64,000 nt of DNA, from contig JBEULL010000020.1 in NCBI GenBank assembly GCA_041287365.1, positions 3,426 to 67,425 of the forward strand. The letters run 5' to 3'. How positions within the stretch are numbered: the stretch's first letter is position 1; the number at the start of each line of letters is the position of its first letter. The notes beneath the pieces are model-generated. The model worked only from the letters and a program-made list of their open reading frames with translations. It searched no databases and had not been told where the DNA came from. The stretch comes from Dissulfuribacterales bacterium. GTDB taxonomy: Bacteria; Desulfobacterota; Dissulfuribacteria; Dissulfuribacterales; DYLC01. Shown here piece by piece: positions 39,899 to 46,878 of this stretch. Both the position numbers and the translations under genes were made by a program.

Positions 39899-40636
39899 TC
39901 AGGAGTTTTGTATTTCAATATGGACATGGCTTGCTTCCTTCTTGCGTAAAGATACATGATAGCCTTTGATAAGCAGTTCTTGAGGGTCTGCAAGGGGTGC
40001 TGTCTTGATAAATTCCACTTCTGCGTCCTTGATCAGGCCCATTTCTCGAAGCCGCTTGGCCAGATTTCCATGGGCTTCTATGCGCAACACCCTTGCCTTT
40101 TGGCCGGGAAGCAGTTGATCGAGGGTCGTGACGCCTGAGGGGCAAGCCTCGCGGTTGCCGCTGTCATTGGCAGGGACGGTATTTGTCTCCACTGTCTGTT
40201 TTGGGCAGAAATAGCCTTTTTCAGGAGAATAATCAAAACCAGCCTTTCGGCATGCTGACATGAAGGATGTCAATGCCTCAAAACGTTCCAGCATGTCGGA
40301 TGTGACCATGTGTTCCATTTTACATGCCAGGTCATCGGCTTGTTCGTCGGGTACCGCCATTACTACGCTGAAAAATGTCTTTAACGATTCATGTCGCCTG
40401 GCTACATCGTTGGCGAGTGTGCGGCCGGTTTCTGTGAGGGTGATCACATCGTAGGGTGCGTAATTGATCATGCCTTTTTGTGTCAGCATCTTCAATGCAC
40501 CAGTAACTGAAGAGTTATTGACCCTCAATGCCTTGGCGATATCTTTGGCCTTGGCTGCACCTTTTTGAGAGATGATACGCAAAATGGCCTCCAAATAATC
40601 CTCAAGGCTTGCGCTCAGTGAAGTCATGGTAGGCAT
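39899..40636 (-). CDS. DtxR/MntR-family metal-dependent regulator with C-terminal FeoA domain
   Basis: SLEDYLEAI, HTH SVT.AL..L, RRHE.L..FF, ACKMEH; C-terminal RLREMGL, APLADP, SLRKKEA. Confidence 0.93.
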   Translation of the reverse strand: MPTMTSLSASLEDYLEAILRIISQKGAAKAKDIAKALRVNNSSVTGALKMLTQKGMINYAPYDVITLTETGRTLANDVARRHESLKTFFSVVMAVPDEQADDLACKMEHMVTSDMLERFEALTSFMSACRKAGFDYSPEKGYFCPKQTVETNTVPANDSGNREACPSGVTTLDQLLPGQKARVLRIEAHGNLAKRLREMGLIKDAEVEFIKTAPLADPQELLIKGYHVSLRKKEASHVHIEIQNS

Positions 40637-40739
40637 ATGGAACCTCCTTTAATCAAAAATAAAAAATGAAATATGTGTTCCCGTTCAAGCCTGTCCATAC
40701 CGTCGATTAGAACGACACACGGATGCATCTACTTGCCTA

Positions 40740-40765
40740 ATATTTTTAGGATTGCCTAAAAATAT
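40740..40765. promoter_or_regulatory. DtxR/SirR-type operator
   Basis: Perfect 11-bp inverted repeat ATATTTTTAGG-attg-CCTAAAAATAT with TTAGG-N4-CCTAA core, ~100 bp upstream of the DtxR-family gene. Confidence 0.75.
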
Positions 40766-40882
40766 ACAGTAAGTCAAATTTTTGTCAAGAGATAACACAA
40801 TATTTTCTTTCACTGTAGAATAAAAAAGACCGAATAACGCTGGATAGCCTTGATCAACTAATGGAGTGGAATGCAACAACAG

Positions 40883-40918
40883 CATGTGCAATAATTGCGA
40901 CATGTGCAAAAAATGCAT
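40883..40918. promoter_or_regulatory. putative enhancer (bEBP upstream activation sequence)
   Basis: Tandem 18-bp units CATGTGCAATAATTGCGA / CATGTGCAAAAAATGCAT, each with a TGCA-W5-TGC dyad, ~100-130 bp upstream of a sigma54 promoter. Confidence 0.5.
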
Positions 40919-41013
40919 GTGCGGAACTCTTAAAAAGGCCTTAAATAGCGTTTTAGTGAGCAAAAAGCCGTGTTGGTGGTAGGATAGGTGGAAGAATGCG
41001 CTTTATGATAGAT

Positions 41014-41029
41014 TGGCATTCGGTTTGCA
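41014..41029 (+). promoter_or_regulatory. sigma54 (-24/-12) promoter
   Basis: TGGCATTCGGTTTGCA, exact GG-N10-GC. Confidence 0.75.
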
Positions 41030-41039
41030 ATATACATAA

Positions 41040-41121
41040 TCGAACAAAGACAACCTCATAACCCTCCCAACCCTCCTCTCCATAAAGGCCTTCTTAATTA
41101 ACCATTAGGAAGGCCTTTTTT
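41040..41121 (+). ncRNA. candidate sigma54-dependent small RNA with anti-SD motifs
   Basis: Lies between a sigma54 promoter and a strong terminator; no ORF; AACCTC, AACCCTCC x2 and TCTCC motifs. Confidence 0.6.
41084..41121 (+). terminator. Rho-independent terminator
   Basis: 15-bp stem AAAGGCCTTCTTAAT / ATTAGGAAGGCCTTT (one G-U pair) ending in a T run. Confidence 0.85.
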
Positions 41122-41156
41122 ATGATATTAGATAGGGGTGTAAAGGCAGATAGTCA

Positions 41157-41621
41157 ATGCGGCATGTAAGACATCTTGTTTTTGAAACCATTTCATTCAT
41201 TGCCCTATCGTTGCAAGCTGTTACTTTTCCTTCTTTTGCTTCGGCTGCCCCTGAAATTATTCCGCAATACGATGAAAATACTGAGATTGTCCTAGTCGGT
41301 GAGGTGATTAACTCCGATGTGGACAGCGATCTAAACCTTAGATACCTGGACATCAATGCATCCAAGCGGTGTTATAGAGTCTTTTTGGCGCCTGAATGGT
41401 TTATAGTCAAACACCATGTTCCCTGTATTAGGGGGGCTATCGTGGAGGTGGTGGGTTCCAAATTTTATTGTGATGCAGGAATGCTCTCTGTTCTGGCCAA
41501 GCACATCCGTTACCTGCCTTCCGGCAAGACATTGGTGCTTCGGGATGCTGCAAGCCGTCCGATCTGGCGTCAAGGCCATGATTGGGGCACCTGTATTCGT
41601 TATCAGCCCAAAAAACAATGA
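41157..41621 (+). CDS. exported OB-fold-like hypothetical protein
   Basis: Signal peptide; YD..TE....G.V, V.LAPEWF, G..VEV.GSK, LRD...RPIW. Confidence 0.7.
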   Translation: MRHVRHLVFETISFIALSLQAVTFPSFASAAPEIIPQYDENTEIVLVGEVINSDVDSDLNLRYLDINASKRCYRVFLAPEWFIVKHHVPCIRGAIVEVVGSKFYCDAGMLSVLAKHIRYLPSGKTLVLRDAASRPIWRQGHDWGTCIRYQPKKQ

Positions 41622-42181
41622 ATTCTCTTCGAAAATCCATTCTATTCCAGCGTAACGCCATTCCTGATGACCTTCGCATGACATGGTCAGATGCGATCTG
41701 TCTTAAACTCCAAACCCTCTTGCAAGGTGAACATTTGCAATTTCCCATGTTTTACGTCTCTTTCAGAAGCGAGGTCAGTACCCATGAGCTCATTCGACAG
41801 CGATTGAACCGGGGTCAATGGGTTTCCGTACCAATTACTCATATATCTGAGCGAAGATTGGAGCCGCGGCGTCTGATGGATTGGAGTCAGTTGATTCAAG
41901 GGACCTATGGCATTCTTGAGCCAAATCCAGACACCACCACTTCCGTCTCAGCAAAGAAATTGGATACTGTCATTGTTCCGGGTTCGGTTTTTGACCTGTC
42001 CGGCGGCAGATATGGCTATGGTGGAGGTTATTACGACCGTTTCTTGAAGCAGGGTGCCCCTCAGGCCGTAAGGATCGCCCTCGCCTTTGATCTACAGGTG
42101 CTAAATGTCATCCCTTTAGCCGAGCATGATCAGCGCATGGACTGGATCATCACCGAGACCAGAGTCATCCGCACAGCTTGA
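41618..42181 (+). CDS. 5-formyltetrahydrofolate cyclo-ligase
   Basis: YVSFRSEV.T, YGILEP, IVPG..FD..G.RYGYGGGYYDR, HD..MD.IITE. Confidence 0.94.
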   Translation: MNSLRKSILFQRNAIPDDLRMTWSDAICLKLQTLLQGEHLQFPMFYVSFRSEVSTHELIRQRLNRGQWVSVPITHISERRLEPRRLMDWSQLIQGTYGILEPNPDTTTSVSAKKLDTVIVPGSVFDLSGGRYGYGGGYYDRFLKQGAPQAVRIALAFDLQVLNVIPLAEHDQRMDWIITETRVIRTA

Positions 42182-42863: not shown

Positions 42864-45016
42864 CGGCTGGTCTCAATCCTCCTCTTCAGGTCATGAATGG
42901 CTTTTTGTAGATTTTTTGAGCCCGTCAGGAGTACCGCCTGATTCAGGAGTCTTCGGGCAGTTTTGGGGTCGTTTTCAATGGTTAGGTAACCTTTGGCCAG
43001 GAAAAATAATATTTCCGCATCATAAGTGGTTCGCACCAGCGCCTTGTTCAGGTTTTCCTTGGCATAACCCCAGTTTCCGTTTTCAAGCCCCAATCTTCCC
43101 TGCAGCTTAAAAAATGCGGCCGGTAATTCGGCCTCGTTTCGAGTCATAAATGGGGCAAGCAGTCCTAAGGCGCCATTGGTTTCTCCCTTTTCAAACAGAC
43201 AATTGGCCAATCGGATGGTGATGTGGATGTCCTCTGGAGCTAATTGAGCGGCCTGTCTGAGCAGGTTTTCCGTATTGTCAAGCTGTTTCATCTCCAGAAG
43301 TATACCGCTTAGATTGTAGTATGCCATGATATCTTTCGGGAATTGCCTCAATGCCTGTTCAAAACAGCGCACAGCGGCTGCCTTCCTGCCAGTTTGAAGC
43401 ATGGCGATGCCAAGGCTATTAAGTAAGGCCGGAGTGACCACCGATGAATCGCTCTCCCCCCCGTGTTCTTGTTTTCTTTCCTCCTTTAATGCCATCTTCA
43501 GGGCATTCTTGAACATTCTGTAGGCCCCTTCCATGTCGCCCATGGCAAAGAGTTCGTCTCCTGCCACATGGAGTGTCAGGGCATCAAAAATGGCCGTTTT
43601 TAAGCGCAAACTTCCTTGATTTTTCGAGGAAGTCTCCTCTGATTCTGAAAGCAAAGAGGCGTGGATATGGGCATAGAGCGCCGCTGTCGCCGGATTAAGT
43701 AGTGAAACCTTTAATGCCTTGCCTTCACAGGCGATTCCCATAACAAAGGATGCGGAGACAGCACGGGATTTATTCAGAGATTTGAGGGTATCTTCAATGG
43801 ATTTTCTTAGGGACTCACACGATTTGTTTTGACTGACGATGAACATACTGGATTCACCGGCAGGGATGGCTTGAATATGGACGGGGAGGCGGCTTGTCAA
43901 TTGATTGTGGAGATCGATGTTCTGGTCGGTTTCACAGGATAAAAACGCAACGGCCTTTGGTGAACTGTTGAGTGCGGTTATGGTCTGCAATGCCTCAATT
44001 AGATGAAATGCCCTGGTTTTCTGTTGCAGAAGGGCCACATCCCTTGAGGAAAATATCCTGGTTCCCAATTGGGTTGCTAAAAATTCTGTTTGCAGGATGT
44101 AGGGAAGGGAAGGGGGGCTGTTTTTTCCAAAATGTAGATAGATCGAAAATCTCCTGGCCAGACCAGGCGGGAATATAGTCCAAAAGCGTTTCAAATTGGA
44201 TGTAAGCACCTCATATTTTAATTGACTTTCCTGGTTAGGATTTTTGTTGAAGATGCTAAACCATGCCTCATTGTTACCTCCACCCAGGTATTTTAGCCTT
44301 ATAGACGGCCAGATACGCATACAAATGGCCTTTGTCTTGGCACAGAAGGTGTGGGCATCATCCATTTGTGACACAGCTTCTTCAGAAAAGCGTCTGAATT
44401 GGCTGATATGCACAATGGCAAAACCATTGGAGCGTCCCTGCATTTTCTGTAAGTAATAGCTCAAAAACGGAGTGTAGCCGATTGCATTCACATCACCGAA
44501 GTGCGATAGGATGGGAGACCCACTACCCTCATGGAGCGCAGGCCTTGAAATCAGGCTTTGCTCAAAGATATTTCGAATGAGGATGTGCAAATACTGGCTT
44601 AAAACCCCAAGCCATCGGCCTGCCTCTTCGATGTGTATCAGCCGATTTACGCCCGTTATGACCACAATGGCATGCGATTCCCCTGTGAAGACCCCTTGGC
44701 TATCAAGGCAATCAGACCGAGCAGTTAGATTTAGCGGCAAGAAAACATGATATCCCACCGCATCCCAGAAGGGTTGGCCCGAACGGAAGGCCTCTTTCAC
44801 CCGCCGTTTCTGTCGGTCTGAAAGGTTGAATTGTTCCAGATCGATGATGGGTTCAGAGGAGCCTTCCCCCTTGTTTACGTTTTGTTGGGCATTGTTTGCC
44901 CTGGGAATTAGACAATGCAGCCCCTCGAAGGACAAGACCTTTTTTAGCTTCGCCTCCACAATCGGCAGGACACAGAGCAGGTCGGTGGGCTCCATGGCTA
45001 ACATGGGCTCATTCAT
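42860..45016 (-). CDS. tetratricopeptide-repeat protein
   Basis: C-terminal TPRs (LLNSLGIAM...A..CFEQAL...P, AYYNL); N-terminal region unassigned. Confidence 0.75.
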   Translation of the reverse strand: MNEPMLAMEPTDLLCVLPIVEAKLKKVLSFEGLHCLIPRANNAQQNVNKGEGSSEPIIDLEQFNLSDRQKRRVKEAFRSGQPFWDAVGYHVFLPLNLTARSDCLDSQGVFTGESHAIVVITGVNRLIHIEEAGRWLGVLSQYLHILIRNIFEQSLISRPALHEGSGSPILSHFGDVNAIGYTPFLSYYLQKMQGRSNGFAIVHISQFRRFSEEAVSQMDDAHTFCAKTKAICMRIWPSIRLKYLGGGNNEAWFSIFNKNPNQESQLKYEVLTSNLKRFWTIFPPGLARRFSIYLHFGKNSPPSLPYILQTEFLATQLGTRIFSSRDVALLQQKTRAFHLIEALQTITALNSSPKAVAFLSCETDQNIDLHNQLTSRLPVHIQAIPAGESSMFIVSQNKSCESLRKSIEDTLKSLNKSRAVSASFVMGIACEGKALKVSLLNPATAALYAHIHASLLSESEETSSKNQGSLRLKTAIFDALTLHVAGDELFAMGDMEGAYRMFKNALKMALKEERKQEHGGESDSSVVTPALLNSLGIAMLQTGRKAAAVRCFEQALRQFPKDIMAYYNLSGILLEMKQLDNTENLLRQAAQLAPEDIHITIRLANCLFEKGETNGALGLLAPFMTRNEAELPAAFFKLQGRLGLENGNWGYAKENLNKALVRTTYDAEILFFLAKGYLTIENDPKTARRLLNQAVLLTGSKNLQKAIHDLKRRIETSR

Positions 45017-46433
45017 GAGCTGACTCCATAATCCTCTGCAATGCCTTGGCTATGATGTCAAAATCTTTGGGCTGCATGGTCCTTACATCCATGAGGATCA
45101 GGTTATTTTCTACTCGAACGATGATAGGATGTTCGTTCAGCCGCAGCATCTCCTCCAAACGGGCGGCAGATAGCCCCATGGGAGCCGGATCCAGTGCCAC
45201 AGCATAGGATTTCAGGCGTTCGGCCGGTATGGCGCCGCCTCCTACCCTGGCCTCGGTTGTGATGATTCGAGGACTTATCTGCGAAAGATTCAGGCGTTTC
45301 AGGCGATTGAGCAGGGCATTCGCCTTCTTTTTGAGAATTTCTGGCGATGCCGTGAGCATGGACAGAGTCGGAAGCATCTCCACTGCCCTATCCAAGTCAC
45401 GATAGCACATGAGTACTGCCTCCAGACCCGCAAGAGTGAGCTTGTCTATGCGCAACGCCCGATTCAGTGGATTCTTCTTGATGCGATTCACTAAGTCCTT
45501 TTTCCCCACTATGATTCCAGCCTGCGGCCCTGCAAGGAGCTTATCCCCACTGAAGCTCACTATATCAGTCCCTGCCTGAATGGAGTCCTGCACAGTGGGT
45601 TCGTAGTGCATTCCAAAACGAGAGAAGTCCACGAATGTCCCGCTTCCCAAGTCCTCATAAAGGAATATCCCATGCTGCCTTGCCAGTGTGGCTAACTCCT
45701 GCAGGGATACGGCCATAGTAAAGCCTCCTATGTAGAAATTGCTCTGATGCACCTTCATCAGAAGGGCAGTCTCCGAAGTGATGGCGTTCTGGTAATCCAC
45801 AAGATGAGTGCGATTGGTAGTGCCTACTTCTTTCAGAATAGCGCCGCTTCTGGCCATGACATCCGGAATGCGAAAGGAGCCTCCGATCTCCACCAGTTCT
45901 CCGCGAGATACGATGACATCCTTGCCCTTGGCAAGGGTATTCAGGATGATGAGTACAGCGGCTGCATTGTTGTTTACCACTAACGCAGCCTCCACCCCCA
46001 AAAGTTCACACAGAATCGCCTCCACATGGCTGTAACGGCTTCCCCGTTTGCCTGCCGATAGATCATATTCCAGGTTTGAATAGCCTTCTGCCACTCGGCA
46101 TATGGCATTCAGCACCGAGCGGGGAAGTGGAGAACGGCCCAAGTTGGTATGAATCACCACACCGGTAGCATTCACTACTGGCATCAGAGATGGTCTGCTT
46201 GCATCCTTTATGATACTGCCGATGCGTTCCAGAAGGTTTTTGGGGTCGATTAGCCTGTCGGCTGTCTGTGCCCTGTTTGCGGGTTCATCGTTCAGAATGG
46301 CATCCCTAACCTCGGCTATGGCCTGCCGTGTGGCCTTGAGTCGTATGGAATACGGGACATTTTGAGGCAGGTGCGGCAATACTTCATCGATTTTGGGGAG
46401 TTTTCGCAAAAAATCCTGTATATTCTCCGTCAT
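45009..46433 (-). CDS. selA: L-seryl-tRNA(Sec) selenium transferase
   Basis: NATGVVIHTNLGR, SNLEYDL..G.RG.R, VNNNAAA, SRGELVEIGGSFRIP, FSGDKLL.GPQAG. Confidence 0.97.
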   Translation of the reverse strand: MTENIQDFLRKLPKIDEVLPHLPQNVPYSIRLKATRQAIAEVRDAILNDEPANRAQTADRLIDPKNLLERIGSIIKDASRPSLMPVVNATGVVIHTNLGRSPLPRSVLNAICRVAEGYSNLEYDLSAGKRGSRYSHVEAILCELLGVEAALVVNNNAAAVLIILNTLAKGKDVIVSRGELVEIGGSFRIPDVMARSGAILKEVGTTNRTHLVDYQNAITSETALLMKVHQSNFYIGGFTMAVSLQELATLARQHGIFLYEDLGSGTFVDFSRFGMHYEPTVQDSIQAGTDIVSFSGDKLLAGPQAGIIVGKKDLVNRIKKNPLNRALRIDKLTLAGLEAVLMCYRDLDRAVEMLPTLSMLTASPEILKKKANALLNRLKRLNLSQISPRIITTEARVGGGAIPAERLKSYAVALDPAPMGLSAARLEEMLRLNEHPIIVRVENNLILMDVRTMQPKDFDIIAKALQRIMESAHE

Positions 46434-46878
46434 GACACACATTACCTTTTTATGGGTTGACAAGACCAAATTCGCCTGGCTTCGAGAAGGAATAGAGTTT
46501 TATCGAAAGAGACTTACCCATTATGTGAGAGTGGAGGTGCGAGAGGCGCCTGCCGGGCCTACCCCAAAGATCGAAGGCGATAACCTACTGAAATTGATTC
46601 CAAAAGGCAGCCTGATATTTGCACTGGATATCAAGGGTGACACCGTAAATTCTTCAGACCTGGCTCGATTGCTTGCAGGGCTGGAGACAGCAGGTCATTC
46701 CCATTTTTGCTTCATAATAGGCGGGGCCTATGGTCTCTCTCAGGAGGTGCTGCAAAGCGCACATCGCAGGCTCTCACTCTCTTCTCTTACATTCACTCAT
46801 GACATGAGCCGTCTGATTCTGATGGAGCAACTCTATCGGGCATATTCCATCATAGCAGGGGCTCCATATCATCATTGA
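46432..46878 (+). CDS. rlmH: 23S rRNA pseudouridine1915 N3-methyltransferase
   Basis: FIIGGAYGL, LSLSSLTFTH...RLIL.EQLYRA..I..G.PYHH. Confidence 0.95.
   Translation: MTHITFLWVDKTKFAWLREGIEFYRKRLTHYVRVEVREAPAGPTPKIEGDNLLKLIPKGSLIFALDIKGDTVNSSDLARLLAGLETAGHSHFCFIIGGAYGLSQEVLQSAHRRLSLSSLTFTHDMSRLILMEQLYRAYSIIAGAPYHH

Follow-up and report, generated by a model that had tools for sequence, protein, structure and literature searches.

A predicted sigma54-controlled anti-Shine-Dalgarno small RNA family in the order Dissulfuribacterales

Introduction

A short, C-rich gene that has a sigma54 promoter and a terminator of its own represents a real and undescribed family of small RNAs (sRNAs) in the order Dissulfuribacterales. 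The copy that we describe lies in a window of 64 kb, by which we mean the whole stretch of DNA that was analysed. There is good support for the gene and its regulatory anatomy; the expression of the gene and its target are predictions. The best reading is that of an unannotated anti-Shine-Dalgarno sRNA controlled by sigma54 and a bEBP, and it is supported by paralogs in the same genome, order-wide conservation, compensatory changes in the terminator and a linked bEBP gene. Taken as a whole, we find it reasonably probable that this is an order-wide, bEBP-switched RNA acting without Hfq on ribosome-binding sites, likely including that of an operon for a barrel protein and multiheme cytochromes.

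Anatomy of the RNA gene

The layout of the unit had been outlined in a sequence-only reading, and every element named there was found in its place in the 64-kb window. The tandem TGCA-W5-TGC enhancer-like pair consists of two bEBP-type boxes, TGCA-W5-TGCG (TGCAATAATTGCG, 40887-40899) and, 18 nt after it, TGCA-W5-TGCA (TGCAAAAAATGCA, 40905-40917), to which binding is predicted. A -24/-12 promoter of the sigma54 type, TGGCA-N6-TTGCA, follows on the plus strand at 41014-41029; rpoN is present in the genome, as is csrA. With its 5' end placed at about 41042 from sigma54 spacing, the predicted RNA of about 80 nt (41042-41121, plus strand) comprises an A-rich leader, an unpaired C-rich body and a terminator. 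The anti-Shine-Dalgarno repeats of the body (41052-41081, plus strand) contain the four expected C-rich words, AACCTC at 41052, AACCCTCC at 41060 and again at 41069, and TCTCC at 41077, with an invariant core at 41069-41081 (AACCCTCCTCTCC). The intrinsic terminator (41084-41121, plus strand) is built from a 15-bp stem, in a hairpin spanning 41084-41118, and a U tail. As proposed, the body lacks an open reading frame: its plus strand has no start codon inside, which rules out a small peptide encoded there. In the predicted RNA the terminator is the sole fold (-19.7 kcal/mol, z -5.2, none of 200 shuffles as stable), and the C-rich core has a mean unpaired probability of 0.99.

The unit is located between a divergent cluster of DtxR/MntR-FeoA, feoA and feoB genes and the gene of a 154-aa exported protein (41157-41621, plus strand), next after which comes a 5-formyl-THF cyclo-ligase gene. 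On the side of the divergent cluster, a near-perfect palindrome, TTAGG-N4-CCTAA (40743-40762), unique in the genome, lies between a sigma70 promoter on the minus strand (40761-40788) and the cluster's genes. It presumably resembles DtxR boxes and is likely the metal repressor's operator.

Distribution and conservation of the family

Just three of the 29 TGGCA-N6-TTGCW sites in the genome are followed by this C-rich body and terminator, and the RNA unit is therefore beyond chance. These three are the window copy and two paralogs on another contig (C12), which stand in tandem, each with its own promoter and terminator; the sequence-only reading had suggested looking for such paralogs, and both share the promoter, body and terminator of the window copy. 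A DNA search gave matches in 38 of 41 relatives from the order, and the motif conservation on which the reading depended holds, as the core AACCCTCCTCTCC is kept in all 29 relative loci cut by this search (L009-L037). The complement of a 12-base core occurs in 57 of 61 order genomes, counted as sequence matches of which not every one is confirmed as an RNA gene; the four genomes missing it are 66-95% complete.

Beyond the order the signal fades. In a sample of 401 genomes of the phylum, 14 of 16 order genomes match a 20-base pattern, and core matches with two mismatches in the remaining genomes (13/385) are at about the level of the reversed control; 14 places outside the order were read and none combines a promoter with a terminator. 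Scanning one genome per species returned 37 stretches, all from MAGs of deltaproteobacterial type, one of them Seep-SRB2, which is placed in the Dissulfuribacterales (PMC10553843). The named homologs of the linked regulator also point to this order, and viral contigs gave no matches. Consistent with the unannotated status claimed for the unit, the only Rfam match in the window is a tRNA, and no family reaches its gathering score at the RNA unit; RefA9 (E 0.97) and STnc310 (E 3.6) near the RNA element are sub-threshold and attributable to chance. No description of the RNA was found in the literature outside subscription journals.

Signs of selection as an RNA come from 38 aligned copies, chosen for having the core and the promoter. 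The promoter GG and GC are kept in 38 of 38 of these promoter-selected copies. The terminator shows changes on both sides in six of 11 consensus pairs, and 96% of its cells are paired versus 33-71% in slid controls, while the 27-base core region holds three G in 1026 aligned bases and the leader varies in length and sequence. This covariation of the terminator and the avoidance of G in the body are signs that the element is selected as RNA. Tandem copies occur in six of 55 loci, with a promoter and a terminator on each. One locus (L031; L106:9700-10400, genome G008) contains three near-identical copies with a period of 283 bp, every repeat including promoter, RNA and box pair. In many copies from relatives (L015-L030, L071-L104) the loop of the terminator contains ACCUCCU or CCUCC, which is absent from the window copy and may provide a further anti-Shine-Dalgarno site.

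A covariance model built from the 38 copies matches 14 of 146 non-order genomes at 32-49 bits, compared with 69-113 bits inside the order. Ten of the non-order matches were read: two are 3' ends of genes, and eight are units with a sigma54 promoter, a CU-rich stretch and a terminator, of other sequence. The architecture thus recurs in the phylum, and the RNA family itself looks restricted to the order among the genomes that were searched. The eight units from other Desulfobacterota families (L387-L390, L393-L396), with a sigma54 promoter, an A-rich leader, CCUCCU and a terminator, have different sequences and different upstream palindromes, with L387, L389 and L390 forming one family, and possibly constitute a wider class of undescribed sRNAs.

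A linked sigma54-activator gene and neighbouring boxes

In 49 of 55 loci, which are kin and include at least one duplicate (L036/L130), the RNA promoter directly follows the 3' end of a gene for a bEBP, an activator of the NtrC family. Together with the bEBP gene beside the C12 paralogs, this arrangement agrees with the bEBP control first proposed from the window. All ten upstream proteins scanned contain the Sigma54_activat and HTH_8 domains, and nine a receiver domain. The linked bEBPs stay below every NCBIfam cut-off, LuxO and NtrC included, and score 350-375 bits against the LuxO model, whose cut-off is 800. No kinase gene was seen beside the bEBP in the 20-kb regions read.

Arrays of two to four TGCA-N5-TGCA boxes adjoin the RNA gene in relatives. 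In most of these the boxes sit 150-450 nt past the RNA and are common to the next gene, with at least two boxes downstream in 39 of the 46 loci that have a full flank; in 27 of 55 loci the boxes are followed by another sigma54 promoter, that of the 154-aa gene. In the genome studied here, the bEBP gene (C12:34023-35390) faces the two C12 copies, with boxes between the copies, and the window copy sits between its boxes and the 154-aa gene with its bEBP on contig C12; the RNA/bEBP locus has split in this genus. A strict box pattern finds 17 boxes in the genome, of which no two but those of the window form a pair, and the array between the C12 paralogs emerges under a looser pattern. Since, in the two genomes that were scanned in full, paired boxes are found solely at RNA loci, the box regulon is likely small. 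From the genomic linkage we infer that the bEBP binds the boxes, and it probably activates through them, acting from an upstream position here and from a downstream one in most relatives. A second sigma54 regulator about 2.5-3.5 kb away in several relatives could also be the box binder. Two sigma54 promoters in tandem precede the RNA in 32 of 55 loci (L014-L030 and others); transcription from the second, 55-60 nt upstream, would yield a longer RNA.

The regulator itself seems to be spared. Nine starts of linked bEBP genes were read (L011, L012, L014, L017, L022, L024, L031, L036 and L107); they are A-rich and none has a Shine-Dalgarno-like word, which about 70% of other genes carry. The bEBP mRNAs would thus escape their own RNA, and with nine of nine starts lacking the word, feedback of the RNA on the bEBP start is unsupported. 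Hfq was found in none of the 61 order genomes (control, 5/14), using an Hfq model because the Pfam LSM model missed the E. coli Hfq control.

A predicted target in a barrel and cytochrome operon

The start regions of 1279 gene pairs common to this genome and G008 were scored by duplex energy and opening cost, using our own gene calls. The best site belongs to the gene of a 470-aa protein on contig C9, which ranks first among the 1279 ortholog-paired genes (-25.8 versus -18.1 kcal/mol for the next); a perfect match of 12 nt is found at no other of the 1949 called genes. Each of the three paralog RNAs pairs with this site, and the pairing extends toward the AUG. The protein is predicted to be an all-beta barrel of about 22 long strands (pLDDT 85), and the Foldseek matches of the model are outer-membrane barrels; it belongs to no NCBIfam or Pfam family. 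Its gene is the first of an operon, followed by genes for a 12-heme lipoprotein cytochrome and a large cytochrome.

Orthologs of the barrel gene are present in 28 of 61 order genomes, and in none of the 17 of genus g3. Scored with the RNA of their own genome, 24 of 24 orthologous sites are among the best 0-11% of 500 background sites. Across the 12 gene families with at least six sites, the barrel family comes out best (median percentile 2.7), and the next two, at 12.3 and 12.5, are its operon partners. The G008 ortholog, a mis-started gene call with an in-frame stop near the likely start, was scored by hand and stands outside both the family ranking and the held-out test. In that test, 19 barrel sites outside the discovery family, which are kin rather than independent and 12 of which come from one family, reached a median percentile of 1.6. 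This was equalled by two of 150 shuffled RNAs; against a G-matched background seven of 150 shuffles were as good, on raw energy none of 150, and the reversed RNA gave a percentile of 2.8. The specificity for the barrel target is modest, and its support moderate. Outside the discovery family the barrel sites match the 5' repeat of the RNA (CUCCCUAUCC); in this genus the 5' repeat has changed, and the barrel site matches the invariant core instead. As a sequence pattern in few lineages, this may be a suggestive case of co-evolution between site and repeat. Whether the barrel operon is a true target is, in our judgement, an evenly balanced proposition.

With orthologs in only 28 of 61 genomes and none in g3, the barrel cannot alone explain the invariant core, and because it is missing from all 17 g3 genomes, other targets must exist if the pairing mechanism is right. 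The two whole-genome scans brought up no gene that was top-ranked in both and upheld across the order, and perfect 12-base complements besides the RNA gene are no commoner than those of the reversed control. Several candidates were rejected. fabG ranks 4 and 10 in the two genomes, and its median over 30 orthologs is -9.0 kcal/mol versus -7.2 for background; a 5-heme cytochrome is strong in G008 only (median -10.6 over 30); rpoN ranks 45 here and 579 in G008; and recurrent GGATAGGGA sites are antisense to smpB or lgt. The multi-target translational repressor envisaged in the sequence-only reading has thus yielded one conserved candidate, the barrel, moderately supported, and lost fabG, the 5-heme cytochrome and rpoN; 20 further candidate sites, mostly from genus g3, may add to these, and Seep-SRB2-type genomes may have targets of their own. 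Another 12-heme cytochrome gene (L343:1513-2337, genome G016) has the GGTTTGGGAG site of the barrel genes at its start and is a possible second target.

The third gene of the operon (G000:C9:158704-162663; orthologs L280-L305, with L279 for this genome, and L179:16919-19999) encodes a candidate multiheme selenoprotein. In all 22 of the 28 loci that extend to this position, the reading frame of the large cytochrome gene is interrupted by a TGA at codon 129 (GAW-stop-PPSYRQ), and a hairpin follows immediately. Read through, the product would have about 1319 aa and eight CxxCH motifs and may be a new multiheme selenoprotein. It has no PDB sequence match, and an ExtKL/MccSep identity was discarded: there is no match, and TIGR04315 is weak at 35 bits against a cut-off of 375. 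The multiheme selenoenzyme reported from Geobacter has five hemes and 49 kDa (PMC13510729). The gene selA, for selenocysteine synthase, lies in the window on the minus strand (45009-46469) and scores above its NCBIfam cut-off. Elsewhere, a 5-heme cytochrome (L159:18225-19568; G000:C9:18811) with a weak ExtKL/MccSep match, 58 bits for a cut-off of 250, is located in an oxidative-stress cluster and present in 51 of 61 order genomes.

Proposed mechanism and alternative explanations

In the mechanism that we propose, a signal would lead to phosphorylation of the orphan bEBP, which would then bind the TGCA-N5-TGCA array and open the sigma54 promoter. The unpaired C-rich RNA would pair directly with G-rich ribosome sites, without Hfq, and this pairing would lower the synthesis of the barrel/cytochrome operon and of other proteins, with the 154-aa gene switched on alongside the RNA. 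Transcription as a short RNA of about 80 nt appears very likely to us, and repression by pairing we consider likely.

An alternative assigns the element to its neighbour, as the leader, or an attenuator, of the MamS/MamX-like gene downstream, with the short RNA as a by-product. The 154-aa protein has no Pfam match, and Atlas feature matches to PF26390 clusters (0.92-0.93) are a lead only; its gene is a conserved neighbour whose homologs come after the RNA in relatives. In the window it starts 38 nt past the hairpin and has no sigma54 promoter of its own, as a leader would have it. The RNA data are contigs of one metatranscriptome, which carry neither strand nor ends and may be DNA; no short transcript appears among them. 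One of them, from a close relative (584 nt, 64 differences), covers 41056-41623 and crosses the terminator, which makes it plausible that the window copy may partly read through into the gene at 41157, the outcome that the sequence-only reading had set against its small RNA. Another covers a paralog, starts about 217 nt upstream of the promoter and stops in the hairpin; gaps in cover (40628-41003) carry no evidential weight. In most relatives, however, 250-550 nt separate the gene from the RNA, and it has boxes of its own in front of it and, in the 27 loci mentioned above, also a sigma54 promoter of its own; the C12 paralogs point at the end of the bEBP gene, and no reading frame follows them on their strand. 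No alternative fold was found, and the self-contained tandem copies also argue against a leader. We regard this as the least probable of the explanations.

Two further alternatives accept the RNA and question its target. KH proteins and Rho bind C-rich single strands, and the RNA could act mainly through such a binder, or as a soak for G-rich RNA, with the match to ribosome sites incidental. A repeated, unpaired body in several copies would suit this, as would a 13-nt core that is invariant over about 11 families with no single mRNA target in all of them. CsrA is present as well, but the repeats are the complement of GGA sites rather than GGA sites, so a CsrA sponge fits poorly. The barrel start, moreover, keeps GG-W-W-D-GGGA 1-5 nt before the ATG in 18 of 28 orthologs versus one of 1592 background genes, although the motif was derived from those same orthologs, and the additional CCUCC in the terminator loop of many relatives also speaks for pairing; we judge the decoy unlikely. 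An untargeted anti-Shine-Dalgarno RNA that damps translation broadly, with the barrel match as the tail of a chance distribution, would draw on the Shine-Dalgarno-like words of most genes. It is consistent with the continuous energies in G008, where there is no clear outlier, and with a pattern search for more sites in which the 50 loci read were mostly non-start or coding matches. Yet the barrel site stands well apart from the rest in this genome and is still strong in held-out families, and we think such general damping highly improbable.

Comparison with known systems

The closest parallels in layout come from Myxococcus and D. vulgaris rather than from Vibrio. In Myxococcus and Cystobacter, the sRNA Pxr (RF01812) lies directly downstream of a sigma54 response-regulator gene (PMC5684412, PMC5568312), has its own sigma54 promoter and occurs as tandem paralogs in some lineages. 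This placement recurs in the 49 loci with an adjacent bEBP gene, the window copy being an exception with its bEBP on C12. Pxr differs in having three stem-loops and an adjacent kinase gene, pxrK; the RNA described here has the terminator hairpin only, with no kinase gene seen beside its bEBP in the 20-kb regions read. The Pxr model has no match in the window, and the genome-wide searches with the Pxr and Qrr models were run without a positive control. Similarly, Dv_sRNA2 of the sulfate reducer D. vulgaris, whose function is given as unknown, is located downstream of the sigma54 response regulator DVU0679 with three clustered TGC-type boxes (PMC3333781). Its box, CGTGCG-N4-CGCACG, is distinct from TGCA-N5-TGCA with a 5-nt A/T spacer; the likeness seen is in layout. 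Both pxrR-pxr and DVU0679-Dv_sRNA2 are closer layouts than Qrr.

The Qrr1-5 RNAs of Vibrio (RF00378), to which the window had originally been likened, are also activated by sigma54 and a bEBP and have several paralogs, and the pairing with mRNAs known for them is predicted here (PMC3730234). They have four stem-loops, LuxO as activator and Hfq binding, in contrast to one hairpin, a non-LuxO bEBP and no Hfq match here. The Qrr model gave nothing at its gathering score in the window and nothing at E<=5 over 40600-41300. The arrangement of enhancer, sigma54 promoter and sRNA therefore stands, and Qrr is a layout analogue only, as the regulator (350 bits for a LuxO cut-off of 800) is not LuxO and Hfq was not found. 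With Hfq in 0 of 61 genomes, the RNA is neither a Qrr nor a Pxr.

In its presumed mode of action, the RNA resembles RsaE (PMC2790875) and the csRNAs (PMC3091779), which present unpaired C-rich motifs complementary to Shine-Dalgarno sites; here, too, an unpaired C-rich motif is conserved, in a unit with its own promoter and terminator. Like the Rsa RNAs it would be independent of Hfq, like the csRNAs it has sibling copies, probably under one response regulator, and in this genus an anti-AUG (CAU) lies beside the anti-Shine-Dalgarno motif. The known RNAs have 5' hairpins, belong to another phylum (Gram-positives) and show no sequence match, and the csRNAs are transcribed from CiaR-activated -10 promoters. 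The cuckoo RNAs of Alphaproteobacteria likewise have a repeated C-rich anti-Shine-Dalgarno motif in multiple copies (PMC4615179). There, CCUCCUCCC is placed in the loops of two to four adjacent hairpins, and RSs0680a binds Hfq; in the present RNA the motifs lie on an unpaired strand, with the core outside the single hairpin.

Implications

Riboregulation in Desulfobacterota is barely mapped, and no Hfq was found in the genomes studied here. Together, the order-wide RNA, its invariant seed, the activator linked to it and the defined box form a whole circuit, open to testing in cultivated members. Among the members of the order are sulfur disproportionators and Seep-SRB2, which partners methane-oxidising archaea (PMC10553843). 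The first step in disproportionating elemental sulfur is described as unknown (PMC8780430), and in Geobacter, sulfur respiration was recently shown to require a different multiheme selenoenzyme (PMC13510729). If the barrel target is wrong, the RNA is still an undescribed sRNA family. If it is true, the RNA links a signal to surface machinery of a related kind.

A more far-reaching idea, which we offer as a doubtful one, is that the RNA is the master riboregulator of this order, whose members disproportionate sulfur or live at methane seeps. An orphan sigma54 activator with the RNA as nearly its only regulon would then shut, without Hfq, the first ribosome site of an operon for a pore, a 12-heme cytochrome and a selenocysteine cytochrome, with a role in sulfur or electron handling on the cell surface. 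Were this so, the RNA would point to a candidate for the first step of elemental-sulfur use and provide a switch with which to test it.
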